A program made the position numbers and the translations under genes. The notes below the pieces were generated by a model. It searched no databases, was not told the origin of the DNA, and was given only the letters and a program-made list of their open reading frames with translations. A stretch of 6,833 nt of DNA from a virus (lineage: Duplodnaviria; Heunggongvirae; Uroviricota; Caudoviricetes): the IMG/VR virus record IMGVR_UViG_2645727743_000001, positions 1 through 6,833 of that record; one strand, written 5' to 3'. This document shows, piece after piece, positions 1 to 6,833 of the stretch. How positions within the stretch are numbered: the stretch's first letter is position 1; each line of letters opens with the position of its first letter.

Positions 1-603
1 CAGAAGCAGAAAAAGCTTATTATGCTTCCATCGGAAACGATGATCTGGCAGCCTGAGTTCACAGATAAAACACTCTCCAGGAAACCCGGGGCGGTTCACG
101 GCGTAAAGATTTGTCATGTAATTATTTACGGTGACAGCCGATCTCCCCGGTTGCGTAACAATATAATTACTTTTGGGGATCTGGTATCCAGTAAGTAATT
201 CTTTACGTACCGCCAGCAATTTTTCTTTATTAATCGACGAGGCAAGATTTTTTTCACCGATTATGCTCAGAATATTTTTGATGACGGCACGGTACGTGTT
301 GAGTGACGTTTTTGCGACTTCCGTTTCTTTCAGTGCCAGAAATTTTTCAGCCAGTTCCTTTATGGTTAAATCTTGTCGGGCCTCACCAAATTTTTCCAGA
401 TTGTGTGAGGAGGGAAACTGTTTTGCATAGTCGAAAACACCAGTTTTTATTGCGTAACAAACAGAGGCGCGCAGCTCACCTGCAATGCGCCTGTTTTTTG
501 CCGTGTCAGGAACCCCAAGATTTTCCCTGATTCTTACACCTTTATAAACAAACCAGATACGTAATTTCCCTCCATGGTTTTCCACGCCTGTCGGATATTT
601 CAT
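1..603 (-). CDS. int: Tyrosine integrase, N-terminal portion only (start at 603, continues past the left edge of the window)
   Basis: Minus-strand frame is open from ATG (revcomp of 601-603) to position 1; it is absent from the ORF track because it has no stop in the window. Hand translation begins MKYPTGVENHGGKLRIWFVYKGVRIRENLGVPDTAKNRRIAGELRASVCYAIKTGVFDYAKQF..., which resembles the arm-binding N-terminus of lambdoid integrases (Rac IntR from memory starts MSKLPTGVEIRGRYIRIWF). It lies 35 nt downstream of xis on the same strand. Possible weak SD GAGAGAAG upstream. Residues encoded by about 1-105 look less integrase-like to me. Confidence 0.6.
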   Translation of the reverse strand, partial: MKYPTGVENHGGKLRIWFVYKGVRIRENLGVPDTAKNRRIAGELRASVCYAIKTGVFDYAKQFPSSHNLEKFGEARQDLTIKELAEKFLALKETEVAKTSLNTYRAVIKNILSIIGEKNLASSINKEKLLAVRKELLTGYQIPKSNYIVTQPGRSAVTVNNYMTNLYAVNRPGFPGECFICELRLPDHRFRWKHNKLFLLL

Positions 604-637
604 TTCAGCTTCTCTCGTTGGTTAGTGTTACTTTTGC

Positions 638-889
638 TCAGGTAAGATGACGTCTTGGTCTTGCAGGTGCCTGGCGCTCAATCCAGCGGTCAATTTCTTC
701 CAGGTTGTAAAAGCATGGGCTGTTATCCCATGGCATACAGTCATGGGCGACATGCCTATACTCCCTTCCTTCCATAAACGATTTTTCCCTGGCTTTTTTT
801 AGCGTTCCCTTTTTTATTCCTTTCAGTGCAATTAGCTGTTCTTCGGATACCCATTTACCGGGAGAGATAATCATGATTACTTCGCTCAT
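638..889 (-). CDS. xis: Excisionase (lambda Xis-like)
   Basis: 83-aa ORF MSEVIMIISPGKWVSEEQLIALKGIKKGTLKKAREKSFMEGREYRHVAHD... has the W...R...GREY pattern of lambda/HK022 Xis (lambda DGREYLFHESA, from memory) and sits immediately upstream of int on the same strand. The start is uncertain: ATG at 889 or the in-frame ATG at 874 (MIISPGKW...); both have weak SD. Confidence 0.6.
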   Translation of the reverse strand: MSEVIMIISPGKWVSEEQLIALKGIKKGTLKKAREKSFMEGREYRHVAHDCMPWDNSPCFYNLEEIDRWIERQAPARPRRHLT

Positions 890-958
890 CGCTTTTATCT
901 CTTACTTCAGATGAGCGCCGGTTGCAGAATACCAGTCACAACCGGCGGTGGTTGAACA

Positions 959-3439
959 TTAAAAATCAGCCTGACTCGGGATCAGTTTTTGTATCGTAGC
1001 TGTAACGTATTTTGCCTGGTGACGGGCGTCATCCAGTGCATTGTGGCGCACGCCTTCGAATGGAATAACGGTTCTGGCATCAAAGTCGATTGTTTTTCCC
1101 AGCTCAACGATTGTGCGTACATCGCGATCGTTGTGGTAGCGCCACGGGCAGGGGATGTCCAGACGTTCGTATGAGGTGCGCAAAATTGCGTTATCGAAAG
1201 TCGCACCATTACCCCATACCTGAACGAATTTTTCATCTGAGTATTCGTTGATGAACTCCCGAAACTGCGAAAGGGCATCCTTCAGTTTTACCTGGTCTGT
1301 TAAAATGGCAGCTCTGGCTTCACTGGACTGCTTCAGCCACCATTCGATGGTTCCACCGTCAGGAACAGCCCCTGTATTCATTGCGTCAGTCAGACTGATA
1401 ACGATATAAAATACTGGCCCGATTTCCCCTGTTTGTGGGTCGAAGAAAACCGCACCAATAACCACGATGGGCGCATTGGTGTTGGTTCCCATTGTTTCAA
1501 GGTCGATCATCAAGTGGTACCACACTCTGCTGGTGGATGTGATAACGTGATGACCGTTCACCGCAATTAAGGGATCTGCCGTCTCGCCAGTTTCATTATC
1601 GCTGGCGTGGTCCTGAGCGCTGCCAGCATTCTCCTTGTGTGGATGTTCAGCGCCTTCCATTTCCTCCGGATCATTTTCCTGAACTTCAACCCGATTCTCT
1701 TCATTGAATGTTTCCTGGTATGTTGCGTCGCCCATCACCGCGCCACAATCAGGGCAGTTGCCGCCGCCGGTCTGACCGCAGGCGGTGCAGATCTTTTCCG
1801 GTTCCTGTTGCACTACTGGTTCAGGTTGTTTCGTTTCTGGCTCATTTTGTAACGCATTTGGGCTGTTTTGTTCCGCTTTCTGGCCGTTCTGTTCCGTTTC
1901 TTGCTGGTTCTGGTTCACAGAATCGCGGGTTTCCATCCCCTTCACCCATTTCGGATCATTCGGATCGCTAATTCCTGCAACAAATTCACCACGTGATACT
2001 GCAAGCAGTTCATCGGCGTCAGGCTGGCTGATATTGGCTGCCTGCATAATGTTGTTTACTTCGTCAGCGGTAACTTTTACCGGCCCTGGTTGTGCGGTCG
2101 TGTCAGATGCACCAGTATTTTGTTGTGAACCTGAGTATGTACTGTTTTTGCGGACGAAATATTCTTCTTTCGTGATTTCAGTAGCCCCGGCAGCCAGTGC
2201 CTTATCCAGACCAGAAAGTTTGTTTGCGCGACCGTATTTTTCGCCATCCTTGTCGGTGAAGAGGAAGTAGAACGGCCCCTCACGCTCTACAGATGGTTCG
2301 ACTTCCACTTTGCATTCGGTTTTTTCGTTGTCCGGAATTGCCGTTTCCACTGCATCAGTTTCTGGTACTGGCGACGAGAGAGTATCAGTTGCGCTCTGAT
2401 TTGTTCCTTCATCTTCAAACACGCCCTTTGTAGTCAGGTATTCAGTAATGTATTTGTTCAGTGCCACAGGGTCTTTGTGAATGTCGATCGGACGTTCACG
2501 GACAAGGCCAAAAATAGTCTGGCGGTCGTAGCGAAGGGCATCAGGCTGTTTGCGCATTGATGCTGAGATACGCTTCCAGTCTTCGCGGTCGTTGTTGATA
2601 ACTTCATTTTTTGCCCAGCGATGGATGCTGCCGTCAATGTTTCCGGCATCAACATCACCAGGCCACAGAGCGTAGGCCAGTTCATCATCCAGTGTTTTCC
2701 ATGTCTGCTTATATTCGCGACGAATGACAGCAATGACAGGGGAGATATTTTCTGCTGAGTTTTCAGTGTGCTGTCGGTTGACTCTGGCGCGGGCGAGATC
2801 AACAGCAGACGTGTATTTTCCGGTTTCCTTGCGTTCACCTTCGCGACGTTTTTTCCAGATGCGCATCTCTGCCTGAATTTCGGGCCATTTAGCACCAGGC
2901 TTACATTTATGCTTAACCCACCCGATGGCATGCAACTTAAGCTCCGGATACATGGCGTTAACTTCTGGCATTTTCATCAACGCTTCAACGATATGGCCGT
3001 CGAATGTTGCCATGTCTTCCTGCAACAATTCCTGTGCACTAATCACCATATCAACGGTGATGTTTTCACATGTGTCGAACTTAACCATGACAGCGTTCTG
3101 TACTTCAGGGGCCAGCTTGTCAAAAGTGACGTTCATCGGATCGGATTCAGTCTCAACCGGGACAAAGGAAGCAGACTCCTCATCCCAGCGGTTTTCCTGC
3201 ATATATTCAGCATCCCAGGAATCGAGGGCAGGGCGGGGTATACCGGGTTTATCCTCGCAAACAAGAAATTTATAAGCGCAGTCCTGAGCAGCCGGATAAT
3301 GTTCCAGGAATTGCCAGTGAAATTTTGCGCGGGCGCGACGTTCATCACCGGCTTCAATGGCAGTGGCTACAGCGACGGCACCTTCTTCCTTTATTGCCTG
3401 TTCGTCCGGAATGGCGGCGCAAATAAAGACTTTACTCAT
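959..3439 (-). CDS. ydfE: YdfE-family prophage protein, full length, with C-terminal DEDDh 3'-5' exonuclease domain (often annotated exodeoxyribonuclease VIII in lambdoid prophages)
   Basis: 826-aa ORF with SD GAGGT 9 nt upstream of ATG at 3439. The N-terminus MSKVFICAAIPDE...AVAVATAIEAGDERRARAKFHWQFLEHYPAAQDCAYKF matches my recollection of K-12 YdfE. The C-terminus carries DEDDh motifs: MIDLETMG (Exo I), WGNGATFDNAIL (Exo II), HNALDDARHQAKY (Exo III). The central region has a CxxC-x7-CxxC zinc-ribbon-like motif (CTACGQTGGGNCPDCG), a Q/E/P-rich low-complexity linker and the RecE-like segment LLAVSRGEFVAGISDPNDPKWVKG. Confidence 0.85.
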   Translation of the reverse strand: MSKVFICAAIPDEQAIKEEGAVAVATAIEAGDERRARAKFHWQFLEHYPAAQDCAYKFLVCEDKPGIPRPALDSWDAEYMQENRWDEESASFVPVETESDPMNVTFDKLAPEVQNAVMVKFDTCENITVDMVISAQELLQEDMATFDGHIVEALMKMPEVNAMYPELKLHAIGWVKHKCKPGAKWPEIQAEMRIWKKRREGERKETGKYTSAVDLARARVNRQHTENSAENISPVIAVIRREYKQTWKTLDDELAYALWPGDVDAGNIDGSIHRWAKNEVINNDREDWKRISASMRKQPDALRYDRQTIFGLVRERPIDIHKDPVALNKYITEYLTTKGVFEDEGTNQSATDTLSSPVPETDAVETAIPDNEKTECKVEVEPSVEREGPFYFLFTDKDGEKYGRANKLSGLDKALAAGATEITKEEYFVRKNSTYSGSQQNTGASDTTAQPGPVKVTADEVNNIMQAANISQPDADELLAVSRGEFVAGISDPNDPKWVKGMETRDSVNQNQQETEQNGQKAEQNSPNALQNEPETKQPEPVVQQEPEKICTACGQTGGGNCPDCGAVMGDATYQETFNEENRVEVQENDPEEMEGAEHPHKENAGSAQDHASDNETGETADPLIAVNGHHVITSTSRVWYHLMIDLETMGTNTNAPIVVIGAVFFDPQTGEIGPVFYIVISLTDAMNTGAVPDGGTIEWWLKQSSEARAAILTDQVKLKDALSQFREFINEYSDEKFVQVWGNGATFDNAILRTSYERLDIPCPWRYHNDRDVRTIVELGKTIDFDARTVIPFEGVRHNALDDARHQAKYVTATIQKLIPSQADF

Positions 3440-3532
3440 GTTGTTTTAACCTCATTACAGATTTAAGGGTGAACAAATCCCTGCCATTGCTGGCATATAA
3501 AAATGAAACCGGATATTAATTACGGAACTGTT

Positions 3533-3724
3533 TTAAAGACCTGCCGGGATTTCGTTATTATCCATGTGAATAACTTTATCGACCGGATAGCAGTTACCGG
3601 GAATTTTTTGTTCTGCTGCGGCAGCCATGCATTCTTTCATTGAACCGTAAATGTCAATAACCATGTCAACAGGCTCGCCAGTATTAAGAAAAACAGTCAG
3701 AGTGAGGGCAATAGTAGTATTCAT
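3533..3724 (-). CDS. ydfD: YdfD-like small lysis protein (63 aa, N-terminal hydrophobic segment)
   Basis: The ORF track gives 3533..3778, but the supported start is the internal ATG at 3722-3724, preceded by SD AAGGA (8-nt spacer) and overlapping the dicB stop in an ATGA arrangement. Product MNTTIALTLTVFLNTGEPVDMVIDIYGSMKECMAAAAEQKIPGNCYPVDKVIHMDNNEIPAGL is 63 aa, the length and position of Qin YdfD. Confidence 0.75.
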   Translation of the reverse strand: MNTTIALTLTVFLNTGEPVDMVIDIYGSMKECMAAAAEQKIPGNCYPVDKVIHMDNNEIPAGL

Positions 3725-3909
3725 TGCCAGTATCCTTTTTGCATCGGGCGTAAACGTGCCAGCATTGAAAGAATGCATATTTTATTTAATAGCTCCCGTT
3801 CGTGTTTTCTCTTATTAATGGCATCTTCAGTAAATACAGGGTTACTGATTCTGACACCAATTTCAAAACAACCTTCAGACGTATTGACGTTTGGTAATAA
3901 CGTTTCCAT
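3721..3909 (-). CDS. dicB: Cell division inhibitor DicB (MinC-activating, 62 aa)
   Basis: The ORF track gives 3721..4005, but the internal ATG at 3907-3909 has SD GAGGA 7 nt upstream. Product METLLPNVNTSEGCFEIGVRISNPVFTEDAINKRKHERELLNKICILSMLARLRPMQKGYWQ is 62 aa and matches my memory of DicB. It lies about 185 bp downstream of the DicF-like terminator, as in the K-12 dicB operon. Confidence 0.8.
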   Translation of the reverse strand: METLLPNVNTSEGCFEIGVRISNPVFTEDAINKRKHERELLNKICILSMLARLRPMQKGYWQ

Positions 3910-4092
3910 TATCGCGTCCTCAACAATGAATTTTGTGATGCGGTGCCTGGTGCCTCCAGGTGACGTTAACCAGTTAATAATTAACGCCGGATACAGAGAA
4001 CCCACCCATAAGAACCAATACGGAAGTCAACTGGCCTTTTTAACTGTTCCGCGTGCGCTGAGCCGCATTCACCGCATCACAAAATGCACTTT

Positions 4093-4150
4093 AAAAGGTG
4101 CGGGTATCATGGGAAAAACAAAACGGATACCCGCCAAAAGGTAATCAACA
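4093..4150 (-). ncRNA. dicF: DicF-like sRNA, divergent variant (boundaries approximate; 3' end set by hairpin plus U4)
   Basis: Minus-strand sequence TGTTGATTACCTTTTGGCGGGTATCCGTTTTGTTTTTCCCATGATACCCGCACCTTTT. It contains a 9-bp perfect stem (GCGGGTATC at 4134..4126 pairing with GATACCCGC at 4108..4100) followed by ACC and TTTT (4096..4093). It shares TTTGGCGG..TATC..GTTTT with the K-12 DicF sequence as I recall it, and sits in the expected position between ydfC and dicB. The 5' end is not determinable from sequence. Confidence 0.4.
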
Positions 4151-4480
4151 TGGGTTGTTGCAGCGGGGTTGTCACTCAGGCGTATGGTCAACCTGACAAC
4201 CCGGTGGACATTTGCGAGGAACGGAGAACCCCCGCCATACTTACCGCCGCGCCATTTCGCGGAGTGCCACAACCGGAAGCGCACGGTCGACGAAAATTTA
4301 ACGACAGGCTATCTATGAACCAACCACCTCGCCGTGCGCTTTCGCGTTATGCCCTGACTTTTCAGGGATATATTCTTTCTGTAAACTGTCAGTGCCGGAT
4401 ACTCACCCGTGTCCGGCGCACGCACTCCACCTCACCCGTGGAGAACTCCTTAATTACCAACCCTCAGGAGGGTGAAATTT

Positions 4481-4672
4481 ATGACACAAGAAGAAAAAGT
4501 AATGTTTCTTATGCGCCTGGCTGTGGAAACCTTTAACGCCCATTGCCAGGTGCCCCTTTCACTATCTCACGTTATTTCTCTTGCTACCGAGCAAATGGGG
4601 GAAATTGACGCCATTTACAATACATTTGAAGCATTCCTGGATAAGAAGCTTATGGCAGAGAAGCGTCAATAA
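4481..4672 (+). CDS. Hypothetical 63-aa protein, convergent with and overlapping the 3' end of the 201-aa cargo gene
   Basis: ATG at 4481 is preceded by a strong SD AGGAGGG (4466-4472) with an 8-nt spacer; the ORF track begins at the upstream GTG at 4472. Product MTQEEKVMFLMRLAVETFNAHCQVPLSLSHVISLATEQMGEIDAIYNTFEAFLDKKLMAEKRQ is non-repetitive and reads as helical. No competing long minus-strand ORF spans 4285-4649. No family recognised. Confidence 0.45.
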   Translation: MTQEEKVMFLMRLAVETFNAHCQVPLSLSHVISLATEQMGEIDAIYNTFEAFLDKKLMAEKRQ

Positions 4673-5255
4673 TCCTCATTACCCATCGTAAATTTACAGA
4701 AGTGGGCTTGATGTTGTGTTTTTCAAGCTCGCTCTTCATGATTTCCAGCAGCTTTGAGCTGATAATAAACAAATCAGGTGCATCGTTATTATTTTTATCC
4801 GCATCGTCTTTTTTCGTTTTTAACTCTTGCGGTGAATGTTCGAAAGCAACTTGCAGGGTATTATTTTTAACATCCACAGAGCTTAAAATATGTGCATATG
4901 GATGTGCTATTGTGCGCCCCTGTAAATTTGCATCGTTTTCTAAATCTTTTGATTTCAACAGAACATCAGCAAGACTCTGAATCATGCAGAGATAATCAAA
5001 AACAGTTGCCGTTTCTGTTCTGATTGCTGAAATAACATGACCATTCAGGCAAACAGAAATTACCCGTTCATCAATATCGTTTTCCTGTTTTTGATTATCA
5101 GAACCATATAGCCCTGAAAAAGCATTGCGCACATTACGAACCATATTATCGATGGTTTCTTTTTTGGTGTATGCCGGGTCAATTTTCACCAGACTATCAC
5201 CGAGTGTCGTTGCAGCAATTATCTGGATTTCTTTTGGTAAATCTTTAAATTCCAT
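4650..5255 (-). CDS. Hypothetical 201-aa soluble protein, low-GC cargo gene inserted in the dicB operon
   Basis: Intact ORF with SD GAGG 6 nt upstream of ATG at 5255, starting 22 nt after the ydfC-like stop (operon-coupled). Sampled 60-bp lines give about 33-42% GC versus about 57% in the ydfE gene. No transmembrane segment or catalytic motif recognised; there is a D/K/N-rich linker (KKDDADKNNNDAPD). Confidence 0.75.
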   Translation of the reverse strand: MEFKDLPKEIQIIAATTLGDSLVKIDPAYTKKETIDNMVRNVRNAFSGLYGSDNQKQENDIDERVISVCLNGHVISAIRTETATVFDYLCMIQSLADVLLKSKDLENDANLQGRTIAHPYAHILSSVDVKNNTLQVAFEHSPQELKTKKDDADKNNNDAPDLFIISSKLLEIMKSELEKHNIKPTSVNLRWVMRIIDASLP

Positions 5256-5277
5256 TATTAGCCTCGTTGGTTAACCA

Positions 5278-5496
5278 TTAACGTGGGTATGTAATCATTC
5301 TGGCAATGCTTAATGCCGCTGCTTTTTCCAGATTGGTGATATCCTGCTCCAGAGCGGACAGATTTTCAGCCTGCTTAGCCCTGGCTTCATTGGCCCATTT
5401 CAGGTCCTGCGCAGCCTTAATTTTCTGGTGCATCCACTCATAAAGTTCATCATCGGTATAGTCTGGCGCGATGATGACGGGTTCTCGTTTCTGCAT
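5278..5496 (-). CDS. ydfC: YdfC-like small prophage protein (72 aa)
   Basis: ORF MQKREPVIIAPDYTDDELYEWMHQKIKAAQDLKWANEARAKQAENLSALEQDITNLEKAAALSIARMITYPR with SD GAGGA 6 nt upstream of ATG at 5496. Same length and operon position as Qin YdfC. Confidence 0.7.
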   Translation of the reverse strand: MQKREPVIIAPDYTDDELYEWMHQKIKAAQDLKWANEARAKQAENLSALEQDITNLEKAAALSIARMITYPR

Positions 5497-5525
5497 ACTG
5501 ATTCCTCGCGGTGCTGCTTCGCTTA

Positions 5526-5654
5526 TCAGCCGTTAGATTTTGCCGGGCTGGAAAGCGCCTGTTTAAATTCGCTGAAGCTGAGGGCTTCTTCGCCTTCGGC
5601 AAGGCCTTCGAAGTATTCTTCGTAAGCCTTTTCCATGATTGTGTCGAAATCCAT
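5526..5654 (-). CDS. ydfB: YdfB-like small protein (42 aa), not in the ORF track
   Basis: Hand translation of the minus strand gives MDFDTIMEKAYEEYFEGLAEGEEALSFSEFKQALSSPAKSNG. ATG at 5652-5654 lies 1 nt after the ydfA-like TGA stop (TGAtATG); stop TGA at 5526-5528. Length and position match Qin YdfB. An alternative start is the internal ATG at 5634-5636. Confidence 0.6.
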   Translation of the reverse strand: MDFDTIMEKAYEEYFEGLAEGEEALSFSEFKQALSSPAKSNG

Positions 5655-5655
5655 A

Positions 5656-5811
5656 TCACCCACCTGAATCTCTTTCCAGCCAGCGACGCGCTCCAGATTC
5701 GGTTTTAAACGTTTTGCTTTTGGTATACGTCATTGCGGTGAACGTGCCGTCCTGGTTTGGAAACACGCCGTACACCAGAGATTCGTTGTTGCCAAGATCG
5801 ATAGTATCCAT
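5656..5811 (-). CDS. ydfA: YdfA-like small protein (51 aa, DUF1391-type)
   Basis: The ORF track gives 5656..5865; the internal ATG at 5809-5811 has GAGG 5 nt upstream. Product MDTIDLGNNESLVYGVFPNQDGTFTAMTYTKSKTFKTESGARRWLERDSGG is 51 aa and matches my recollection of YdfA. Confidence 0.7.
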   Translation of the reverse strand: MDTIDLGNNESLVYGVFPNQDGTFTAMTYTKSKTFKTESGARRWLERDSGG

Positions 5812-5889
5812 GCTGACCTCATTTCCCCTTAACGCCGGGGTAGCGGAACTGTTTGCTGAGAACACCGTGCGGTGTCTTGATGGAAAGTA

Positions 5890-5907
5890 ATTTAGAATAA
5901 CCTAACA
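5890..5907. promoter_or_regulatory. Degenerate operator-like palindrome (minus-strand reading TGTTAGG-TTAT-TCTAAAT) in the dicB-operon promoter region
   Basis: Matches the TGTTAGA-N4-TCTAACA pattern at 11 of 14 arm positions. Centre lies 36 bp from the perfect site at 5926-5943, between the dicA stop and the ydfA start. Confidence 0.4.
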
Positions 5908-5925
5908 TGAGAGGCAAGTGTTTTT

Positions 5926-5943
5926 TGTTAGATTGATCTAACA
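5926..5943. promoter_or_regulatory. Operator palindrome TGTTAGA-TTGA-TCTAACA (candidate DicA site controlling the ydfABC-dicF-dicB operon)
   Basis: Perfect 7-bp inverted arms with a 4-bp spacer, read directly from the sequence. Located in the 168-bp gap between the dicA stop (5980) and the ydfA-like start (5811). Confidence 0.6.
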
Positions 5944-5979
5944 AAAAGGGTGGGCGCAACTAATCACTTGAAAAGAATG

Positions 5980-6387
5980 TTATTTTATTGATTTATTTTT
6001 ACGCGCTTTAAGCATTTCTTCGAAGAGTTTGTTGAAGTTTTCTACTCTTGCGCGCATTTCAGACAGCAAGGCTTCCTGCTCGGAAGATGGAAGAGCATCG
6101 AATAATTCGATCAATTCTTTGTGGTTGGGAGTTAGCTCTGTTTCCACATGAAGTTCTTGTGCAGGCACTGGTGCCTTGTCTTCGTCACCAAACATTAGCC
6201 ATGTAGGTGAGCACTTCAGAGCATCCGCTAAAGCAAACAATCGTTTTCCGACTGGCTGGGTTTCGTCTCTTTCCCATTGTGAAATTGTGACGTGAGCAAC
6301 TCCAGCGAGGCGCGCAGCTTCTCGTTGTGTTAAGCGTAATTCTTTTCGTCGCGCCAGAACTCGCTGGCCTAGGGTTCTTGTATCCAT
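5980..6387 (-). CDS. dicA: HTH XRE-family repressor DicA (135 aa), the CI-like immunity repressor
   Basis: ORF MDTRTLGQRVLARRKELRLTQREAARLAGVAHVTISQWERDETQPVGKRLFALADALKCSPTWLMFGDEDK...EMRARVENFNKLFEEMLKARKNKSIK. It has the same length as K-12 DicA and shares CSPTWxxFGDEDK and EMRARVxNFNKLFEE with it (from memory). Divergent from the dicC-like gene. Weak or absent SD. Confidence 0.85.
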   Translation of the reverse strand: MDTRTLGQRVLARRKELRLTQREAARLAGVAHVTISQWERDETQPVGKRLFALADALKCSPTWLMFGDEDKAPVPAQELHVETELTPNHKELIELFDALPSSEQEALLSEMRARVENFNKLFEEMLKARKNKSIK

Positions 6388-6405
6388 AGTTAGGTAATTC
6401 TAATT
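6388..6405. promoter_or_regulatory. Degenerate operator-like site AGTTAGG-TAAT-TCTAATT abutting the dicA start codon
   Basis: Matches the TGTTAGA-N4-TCTAACA pattern in arm spacing and most arm bases. Lies immediately upstream of the dicA ATG (6385-6387), so it is a candidate autoregulatory site. Confidence 0.35.
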
Positions 6406-6409
6406 TTTC

Positions 6410-6437
6410 TTGACTTAGGTATCCCGCGCACAATAAT
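6410..6437 (+). promoter_or_regulatory. Candidate sigma70 promoter for dicC (-35 TTGACT, 16-nt spacer, -10 AATAAT)
   Basis: TTGACT at 6410-6415 and AATAAT at 6432-6437, read directly. The -10 abuts or overlaps the perfect operator at 6437-6454. Confidence 0.5.
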
Positions 6438-6454
6438 GTTAGAAAAGTCTAACA
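6437..6454. promoter_or_regulatory. Operator palindrome TGTTAGA-AAAG-TCTAACA between the dicC promoter and the dicC SD
   Basis: Perfect 7-bp inverted arms with a 4-bp spacer, identical arms to the site at 5926-5943. Lies directly 5' of the dicC SD AGAGGGGG (6455-6462). Confidence 0.6.
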
Positions 6455-6467
6455 AGAGGGGGCTTTG

Positions 6468-6695
6468 ATGCTTAAAGTTGACGCAATTACTTTTTTTGGC
6501 AGCAAAACAAAGCTTGCCAATGCCGCAGGAGTGAGACTGGCAAGTGTTGCTGCTTGGGGGATACTGGTTCCTGAAGGTCGCGCGATGCGTCTACAGGAGG
6601 CATCTGGCGGGGAGCTTCAGTATGATCCCAAAGTTTATGACGAATATCGTAAGACGAAGCGGGCGGGGCGGTTGAACAATGAAAATCACTCCTGA
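6468..6695 (+). CDS. dicC: DicC / YdaS-like Cro-type regulator (75 aa from ATG at 6468)
   Basis: [78 protein letters not shown]. The ORF track starts at TTG 6465; I prefer the ATG at 6468, 5 nt after SD AGAGGGGG. Divergent from dicA; fits the YdaS/DicC family pattern GSxxKLAxAxGVxxxSVxxW. Confidence 0.8.
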
Positions 6696-6786
6696 ACAGG
6701 CTCGTGAGGCTCTGGATGCCTGGATATGTCGACCAGTAGACTGGCCCCCTGAATCTCCAGACAACCAGTATCACTTAAATAAGTGA
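6679..6786 (+). CDS. Short 35-aa ORF overlapping the dicC 3' end (possible remnant or small gene)
   Basis: ATG at 6679 to TGA at 6784-6786 gives [35 protein letters not shown]. It overlaps the dicC stop by 17 nt. No SD checked; could be a truncated ydfX/ydaT-like start. Confidence 0.2.
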
Positions 6787-6833
6787 TAGTCTTAATACTA
6801 GTTTTTAGACTAGTCATTGGAGAACAGATGATT

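Follow-up and report, generated by a model that had tools for sequence, protein, structure and literature searches.

Gene content of the locus

The stretch of DNA studied here (6,833 nucleotides (nt); hereafter the window) comprises positions 1 to 6,833 of the IMG/VR virus record IMGVR_UViG_2645727743_000001 and belongs to a lambdoid prophage of the Qin/Rac-like kind, of which it forms the early-left arm. Our subject is a plus-strand gene of 63 codons, here termed gene A, which lies antisense within the early operon and converges with a minus-strand gene for a protein of 201 amino acids (aa). Between 4300 and 4800 the window matches the Escherichia coli E300082 chromosome at 100% identity, and the annotation of that locus by the Prokaryotic Genome Annotation Pipeline (PGAP) was used for the gene order. 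On the minus strand the genes follow one another as a helix-turn-helix (DicA-like) repressor, a DUF1391 gene (ydfA), ydfB, ydfC and the 201-aa gene and, past the oppositely oriented gene A, dicB, a DUF1482 gene, a large exonuclease gene, xis and int. Outside 4300-4800 the window differs from E300082: in a comparison of 3500-3940, dicB and the DUF1482 gene overlap by 16 nt versus 4 nt, and the exonuclease gene is displaced by 1 nt. Another of the few cassette-bearing strains is the probable source of the window. The elements on which the analysis centers are listed below.

4466..4472, plus strand: Shine-Dalgarno (SD) sequence AGGAGGG, with an 8-nt spacer to the start codon of gene A
4481..4672, plus strand: gene A, the 63-aa open reading frame (ORF; PGAP WP_052931385.1, hypothetical), with ATG at 4481, TAA at 4670-4672 and 63 codons
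4650..4672, both strands: 3'-3' coding overlap of gene A and the 201-aa gene, 23 bp
4650..5255, minus strand: 201-aa partner gene, by PHROG scans an intact fusion of a phrog_1363 N-domain (aa 1-130), a linker and a C-terminal domain termed B
4653..4790, minus strand: coding region of the B domain (about aa 156-201: DLFIISSKLLEIMKSELEKHNIKPTSVNLRWVMRIIDASLP), present at 35-85% identity in the partner of every gene A homologue

Gene A belongs to a conserved family of prophage proteins

The start of gene A is well defined. An in-frame GTG is located upstream of the ATG, at 4472, and in every homologue the start is the ATG that opens the sequence MT(Q/K/H)EEK. The duplex of its SD sequence with the anti-SD of 16S rRNA was calculated at -10.8 kcal/mol, which ranks second among the 12 correctly placed gene starts checked; in the window, only the start of the dicC-like gene has a better one. 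When all 666 ATG, GTG and TTG codons on both strands were considered, an equal or stronger SD was found at three.

Gene A was matched by the profile of phrog_2605 with an E-value of 1.1e-17 (residues 1-59 aligned to positions 1-59 of a profile of 69), and by this match it is a genuine member of that family of phage proteins. Its homologues (57-69 aa, 30-98% identity) were found in prophages or phages of enterobacteria, namely E. coli, E. albertii, Shigella phage SfII (SfII_36), Edwardsiella phage EPP-1, Buttiauxella and Klebsiella, as well as in related metagenomic contigs. A HMMER profile search of 1.84 billion cluster representatives delineated a narrow family of 18 clusters at 50% identity, none of which connects to any known family. 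In alignments of 17 and 12 homologues, a nearly invariant N-terminal motif, MT(Q/K/H)EEKVMFLMRLAV(D/E)T.N, is followed by a variable middle part and a C-terminal motif, I..IY..FE.FLD.KL.

The substitution pattern points to selection on the protein. Over codons 1-19, seven of the eight comparisons with divergent homologues gave a proportion of synonymous differences (pS) of 0.44-0.97 and a proportion of nonsynonymous differences (pN) of 0.04-0.13; for SfII, the most distant homologue in the codon comparison, pN over the same codons was 0.31. Since these first 19 codons are free to change at synonymous sites and pN is low, the constraint acts at the protein level and does not reflect conservation of the DNA. 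Over the full length of the gene pN is below pS as well, with dN/dS of 0.14-0.54 where synonymous sites are unsaturated. The FLDKK motif near the end of gene A is kept in the window although the coding region of the partner stops right there, so that the C-terminus is under constraint of its own.

An earlier note on this DNA, made by a model from the letters alone, had proposed that the 63-aa ORF encodes a small protein, had counted its SD among the strongest in the window, and had named poor conservation of the frame in homologous loci as the outcome that would speak against the ORF. The family match, the purifying selection and the PGAP annotation agree with the first point, the SD ranking agrees with the second, and the frame turned out to be conserved at 30-50% identity across genera. 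Taken together, the comparisons identify gene A as a real protein-coding gene of a small conserved lambdoid-prophage family of the Enterobacteriaceae.

The 201-aa partner and its B domain

In the 201-aa protein, aa 1-130 were assigned to phrog_1363 (E 2.8e-41), while aa 160-200 matched the C-terminal parts of two other families, phrog_15476 and phrog_2982. The latter segment is the B domain, which has about 45 residues and follows the pattern L.IISS..LE.LK.EL....IKPT...LR.VM.II..SLP. Most often it forms a stand-alone protein of 57-64 aa encoded by the first gene downstream of an S24-type CI repressor. In the remaining forms the sequence that precedes it has been swapped: it is phrog_1363 in the window, YmfJ-like in phage phiSTEC1589, YdfC-like in loci L047 and L059, and of other kinds in EPP-1, L035 and L061.

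The partner gene has exactly 201 codons for amino acids in six variants that share about 88-99% nucleotide identity. Taken segment by segment (N-domain, linker, B domain and overlap), its dN/dS lies mostly at 0.1-0.6 and reaches about 1.0 in close pairs with few substitutions, which indicates purifying selection along the whole length of the gene. PGAP places a pseudogene "missing C-terminus" at 4857-5255 on the minus strand instead of the 201-aa gene. This label is probably wrong, because the 201 codons are intact in six diverged variants and dN/dS is mostly 0.1-0.6.

AlphaFold2 (AF2) models gene A as two helices (residues 3-22 and 28-62; predicted local distance difference test score (pLDDT) 77, predicted template-modeling score (pTM) 0.34) and the B domain likewise as two helices (pLDDT 78). 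Gene A has a pI of 5.2; it and its partners are all acidic (pI 4.6-5.4) and devoid of transmembrane segments, the top 19-residue Kyte-Doolittle mean being 0.8 for gene A and 1.3-1.4 for the partners. Scans of gene A, the 201-aa protein and the proteins of the alternative cassette described below against Pfam, NCBIfam and PADLOC gave nothing meaningful, sequence-profile searches of the PDB with both families gave no match, and structure and fold comparisons for gene A likewise yielded none. The near invariance of the N-terminal helix of gene A (MTQEEKVMFLMRLAVET.N) suggests that it binds a conserved target of host or phage origin; because this helix is invariant and the partners are only 35-60% identical, a conserved target is suggested rather than co-evolution with B.

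In loci L047 (4157-4684, minus strand) and L059 (3151-3543, minus strand), a single protein combines the YdfC-like domain at its N-terminus with the B domain directly joined to it, whereas the window has ydfC as a gene of its own, immediately upstream of that for the 201-aa protein. This pattern of fusion and fission hints that YdfC and the B-domain protein may act together.

Conservation of the convergent pair

The convergence of the 63-aa ORF with the 201-aa gene and their 23-bp overlap, both pointed out in the earlier note, recur well beyond the window. All 11 variants in which both genes are intact have an equivalent overlap, of 18, 23, 24, 27, 32, 33, 36 or 39 bp. With the exception of one prophage remnant, every intact homologue of gene A is convergent with a gene that ends in a B domain, and gene A is always found antisense in the early-left arm, near a CI/DicA-type repressor. 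The A/B pair was not found as a mobile module outside lambdoid early-left arms: a tblastn search of plasmids with gene A returned a single match, a 38.9-kb Salmonella record, and a scan of one genome per species returned one locus, the Buttiauxella prophage remnant.

Loci with a single intact partner were also observed. The partner is intact and gene A is damaged in L004 (2518-2646, a frameshift in a G-run) and L056 (4204-4329, minus strand, truncated). The Buttiauxella prophage remnant (L008, 4001-4180), which has been disrupted by an insertion sequence, retains an intact gene A and has lost the partner.

We are highly confident that gene A is real and that the A/B pair is a conserved module. 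No earlier description was found of the constant pairing, of the mosaic fusions in which the B domain takes part, or of the slot as defined below. In the library of papers searched, none contained the gene A peptide sequence, and its database names are all "hypothetical". Already known are the gene A family (as phrog_2605 and RefSeq hypothetical proteins) and the general type of architecture, in which the early operon of a prophage harbors an accessory gene in antisense or a convergent excludon.

A recurrent insertion slot in the early operon

Gene A and its partner are carried on an AT-rich cassette whose limits were defined by comparison with K-12. The elements of the surrounding operon that bear on its interpretation are as follows.

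3721..3909, minus strand: dicB, cell-division inhibitor gene downstream in the same operon (PGAP annotation, ORF)
about 4095..4150, minus strand: hairpin-terminator resembling a diverged DicF/KilS, downstream target of the operon transcript (by synteny with K-12 dicF and Rac kilS)
4200..4463: conserved flank from gene A to the DicF-like element, whose minus strand is the DicF-precursor region and which is the sole possible place for a gene A promoter
4464..5277: AT-rich cassette of 814 bp with gene A and the 201-aa gene, with an internal recombination junction near 4863
5278..5496, minus strand: ydfC, directly upstream of the 201-aa gene (ORF, PGAP annotation)

The Qin prophage of K-12 lacks exactly 4464-5277, with clean junctions: homology extends to ...TTAATTAC.AACC and resumes at the stop codon of ydfC. 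The entire cassette occurs in 8 of the 5426 complete E. coli genomes, and the segment 4863-5280, which encodes the N-terminal part of the minus-strand gene, is alone common to about 1,260 E. coli genomes. The GC content is 37% in the cassette versus 50-55% in the flanks. The cassette therefore has two of the attributes of morons, namely a distinct base composition and a presence/absence polymorphism.

A much commoner cassette occupies the same slot in other prophages.

L002 2275-2893 and L058 975-1593: alternative cassette in the slot that corresponds to 4464-5277 of the window

In the copies examined, it encodes a 135-aa phrog_1363 protein convergent with an unrelated, basic 77-aa plus-strand gene (phrog_10348). 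The overlap is again 23 bp, and the 77-aa gene begins at the same junction, after the shared sequence ...CAG(G/A)AGGGTGA. A second A/B-domain variant, which pairs a 69-aa gene A with a 119-aa partner, was found in 65-81 genomes, O104:H4 strains and Stx1c phages among them. Given also the location of sieB in the Rac prophage (see below), different antisense genes (sieB, the 77-aa gene and gene A) have repeatedly landed in the slot that separates the ydfA-family genes from the DicF/KilS small RNA (sRNA).

Relation to the dicB operon and the DicF-like element

The K-12 dicBp transcript is polycistronic and gives rise to DicF; RNase III processes it at a site that precedes the 3' end of DicF by about 190 nt, and the dicB operon encodes toxic products (PMC10448788). 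According to the earlier note, the 63-aa ORF lies antisense to the dicB operon transcript on its way to DicF. The antisense position was confirmed, whereas the Rfam model of DicF (RF00039) matched nothing in the whole window at E<=1 and nothing in 4040-4500 at E<=10. The element found by synteny consists of a 9-bp GC-rich stem (GCGGGUAUC...GAUACCCGC) and a U-run behind it (-17.5 kcal/mol, z = -3.4). Both Rac kilS and the 3' end of K-12 dicF can be aligned with this element, its 5' "seed" part being different. If the operon behaves as its K-12 homologue does, its derepression must transcribe gene A in antisense. No tRNA genes were found.

Similarity to known systems

Among the closest known systems are those of SfII (SfII_36) and EPP-1 (CFHODIGL_00033), where homologues of gene A at 35-51% identity and of like size are also antisense by the repressor and overlap a B-domain partner. 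They differ from the window in that the partner has 68 aa (SfII, unannotated) or 121 aa (EPP-1), is the first gene after the repressor, and has neither ydfABC nor dicB around it. All these homologues are annotated as hypothetical only.

Convergent 3' overlaps are also known from txpA/RatA and bsrG/SR4, which are elements of Bacillus subtilis prophages, and from lambda oop/cII; there, expression of one transcript can destroy or silence the other via double-stranded RNA and RNase III. One of the two transcripts in such systems does not encode a protein, and the toxin of the type I loci is a hydrophobic membrane peptide of small size. The pair in the window differs from them, since both of its strands encode soluble acidic proteins under purifying selection.

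The sieB-ydaF region of the Rac prophage has the same layout as the window: sieB is a plus-strand gene, antisense in the early-left operon, between ydaF (DUF1391) and the sRNA kilS plus kilR, which encodes an FtsZ inhibitor, and it is convergent with, and overlaps, the upstream operon gene ydaF. The part from dicB/kilR to the sRNA terminator is homologous in Rac and the window, and no homology was found between the sequences upstream of sieB and upstream of gene A. In contrast to gene A, SieB is a superinfection-exclusion protein of 162 aa; its sequence is unrelated to that of gene A, the overlap is 4 bp, and there is no B-domain partner.

In the e14 prophage, ymfI and ymfJ (L057 5498-6085) likewise form a convergent pair, with a 63-bp overlap, directly after a CI-like repressor; both genes are uncharacterized. 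YmfI (113 aa) is unrelated to gene A, and the C-terminus of YmfJ is not a B domain. The N-termini of YmfJ (MNEQNLKHVIALLLEDAKR...) and of the 119-aa B-domain protein from phiSTEC1589 are, however, homologous. As the two proteins share the N-terminus and differ in the C-terminus, the mosaic boundary lies inside the gene, and in e14 the N-terminal domain common to both is combined with another cassette of C-terminus and antisense gene. Both sieB-ydaF and ymfI-ymfJ have been reported as core convergent excludons from 58 RNA-seq transcriptomes of MG1655, and transcription of sieB and ymfI takes place in K-12 without induction (PMC12288877).

Proposed role of gene A and alternative explanations

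We propose that gene A is an accessory gene expressed in the lysogen and mutually exclusive with the early operon. In the repressed prophage, gene A would be transcribed from its own putative promoter and, with its strong SD, would be efficiently translated. The scan found no intrinsic-terminator-like site between gene A and the 201-aa gene on either strand, and none downstream of gene A; because no terminator separates the two genes, the transcript would continue antisense into the 201-aa gene. Upon derepression of the dicB promoter, transcription of the operon would pass antisense through gene A. Collision of polymerases and cleavage of the RNA duplex by RNase III would then render gene A and the early operon mutually exclusive, as in an excludon. 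Gene A would act as an accessory protein of the lysogenic phase, and its transcription may damp leaky read-through to the toxic DicF-like RNA and DicB. For this proposal as a whole we see an even chance, and for its regulatory core, expression in the lysogen together with mutual exclusion, a chance slightly short of even.

Several observations weigh against the proposal. The promoter scan detected no sigma-70-like plus-strand site between 3912 and 4481, and the best candidate located manually (TTTTCA at 4359-4364, 17 nt, TAAACT at 4382-4387) is weak, with 8 of 12 matches. The flank upstream of gene A is conserved also in K-12, which has no gene A: positions 4300-4462 have matches of 93-96% identity in 3,294 of the 5,426 genomes of E. 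coli, and the alignment with K-12 covers the remainder. Since this conservation is explained by processing of the DicF precursor from the minus strand, it provides no argument for a gene A promoter. Among close relatives, the dN/dS of gene A is about 0.7-0.9, with very few substitutions. Gene A is frameshifted in L004, L056, P0004 and P0008, so that some hosts can dispense with it. Moreover, the overlap itself enforces co-inheritance of gene A and the B domain, and their co-occurrence is no proof of a functional link.

An alternative that keeps some weight, though we consider it unlikely, is that gene A is an independent moron of the lysogenic-conversion or superinfection-exclusion type, which has settled in the slot of sieB and overlaps its neighbor merely through genome compaction, with no link to B. 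The slot is indeed the same as that of sieB in Rac; the unrelated 77-aa phrog_10348 gene is found there with the same 23-bp overlap in many of the approximately 1,260 genomes; the cassette is AT-rich; and the Buttiauxella remnant keeps gene A without a partner. The contrast between the invariant helix of gene A and its diverse partners also fits a host target better than co-evolution with B. On the other hand, the pairing of A with the B domain persists down to about 30% identity while the surroundings and the N-terminal half of the partner are reshuffled, and such persistent linkage in mosaic lambdoid genomes usually reflects function. In addition, gene A matches no exclusion or defense family.

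Another possibility, that A and the B domain form a dedicated lambdoid two-protein module in which A, made only in the lysogen, binds and neutralizes the B-domain protein, appears decidedly unlikely to us. The B-domain protein, often the first product of the early-left operon, would in such a module act on the host or on the decision between lysis and lysogeny, and the obligatory 3' overlap would enforce either/or expression. If true, this would be a switch combining proteins of two families with an excludon, functionally similar to a toxin-antitoxin system and unrelated to any known pair.

A toxin-antitoxin or immunity pair in the stricter sense, in which the B-domain protein is harmful upon induction and A made in the lysogen neutralizes it (or the reverse) while convergent transcription sets their ratio, is improbable. 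The two proteins are small, conserved, tightly linked and, by geometry, oppositely regulated, the dicB operon encodes toxic products (PMC10448788), and a faint local likeness of the B domain to the helix-loop-helix of RelB was noticed. A RelB-like ribbon-helix-helix is no more than a lead, however: hhalign aligned the expected segment at a probability of 3.8%, no sequence-profile match was obtained in the PDB, and no fold similarity to ribbon-helix-helix proteins was detected; the stand-alone B-domain proteins are acidic. No toxin, antitoxin or defense family of Pfam, NCBIfam or PADLOC was matched; the genes are convergent in all 11 variants instead of forming a co-directional bicistron; soluble acidic products such as these are not what type I toxins look like; both strands are protein-coding and under selection, unlike an RNA antitoxin; and the pair was not encountered beyond the early-left arms of lambdoid elements. 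Finally, each partner is found alone, B intact next to a frameshifted A in L004 and L056, and A intact with B lost in L008. The suggestion of the earlier note that the ORF resembles an antitoxin or immunity partner was thus not supported, on account of the missing family match, the layout and the single-partner copies.

It is highly improbable that A and the B-domain protein are co-expressed lytic partners, with A produced by rightward or late read-through on a circular or induced genome and joining the B-domain protein in a two-subunit early or late factor. Gene A does point in the same direction as rightward transcription from the cro/dicC side, no clear promoter of its own was found, and both proteins are modeled as small helical hairpins that could form a helical bundle. 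Convergent overlapping transcription, however, opposes simultaneous expression, transcription of the positional analogues sieB and ymfI in K-12 does not require induction (PMC12288877), and the int, xis and exonuclease genes together with terminator-like sites separate gene A from any late operon. The last alternative, a chance ORF or a decaying remnant kept by linkage, could draw on the frameshifted copies and the dN/dS near 0.7-0.9 within the closest clade, but it is effectively refuted by the conservation of frame, length and motifs at 30-50% identity across genera, by saturated synonymous sites next to 19 nearly invariant N-terminal residues, by the strong PHROG profile match, and by an SD that is among the strongest in the window.

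Implications for early operons of cryptic prophages

Early operons of the dicB/kil type in cryptic prophages encode DicF and DicB, which are toxic to the host, and the control of their leakiness is an active question. Gene A is a candidate for an extra layer of control in such operons or, alternatively, for a protein that modulates the host in the lysogenic phase. It is present in pathogenic lineages, namely strains of the enterotoxigenic E. coli (ETEC) B7A type and, as the 69-aa variant, O104:H4 and Stx1c phages. The fusions of YdfC-like and B domains provide a lead to the function of YdfC. The advance is modest, in that the family had already been catalogued as hypothetical.

Other sequence signals around gene A

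A hairpin that could occlude the SD of gene A (CTCCT at 4446-4450 with AGGAG at 4466-4470) was considered and rejected, as equal stems were obtained in 95% of shuffles of the window's upstream sequence. By eye there was apparent covariation between subfamilies, with TCTTGG/CCAAGA in the group of SfII-type loci; no consensus structure was obtained with RNAalifold for this candidate, and stems involving the SD were equally common in shuffled upstream sequence. Further upstream, the hairpin CCCTGACTTTTCAGGG at 4352-4367 and the T-rich tract after it are scored as a terminator for the plus strand. The minus-strand reading of the hairpin (CCCUGAAAAGUCAGGG) is similar to a stem-loop of the lambda boxB type, and the hairpin is kept in K-12 Qin and in the Stx1c phage.

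The SfII-type loci (L005, L006, L035, L047, L049, L052 and L054) share a sharply bounded block of about 60 nt, GCCTGTCTTTTCACCACATCAGGCTCGGTGGTATCTTGG...CCAAGAAGG, which is located about 70 to 10 nt upstream of the start of gene A and contains inverted repeats that are interleaved. An alternative reading of the block is a candidate extended -10 promoter (TTCACC, 16 nt, TGgTATCTT). Qin-type loci have other hairpins at the position of this block.

Between the DicF-like element and dicB, a sub-threshold match to the Rfam family STnc100 was detected at 3890-4096 on the minus strand (32.6 bits versus a gathering threshold of 47; E 2.7e-4). Its core hairpin, CACCUGGAGGCACCAGGCACC, was found also upstream of kilR in Rac, and its presence in the SfII and phiSTEC1589 loci is suggested by spurious ORFs with "SPGGTRH". 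The STnc100-like element may be a conserved leader RNA of genes of the kil/dicB type.

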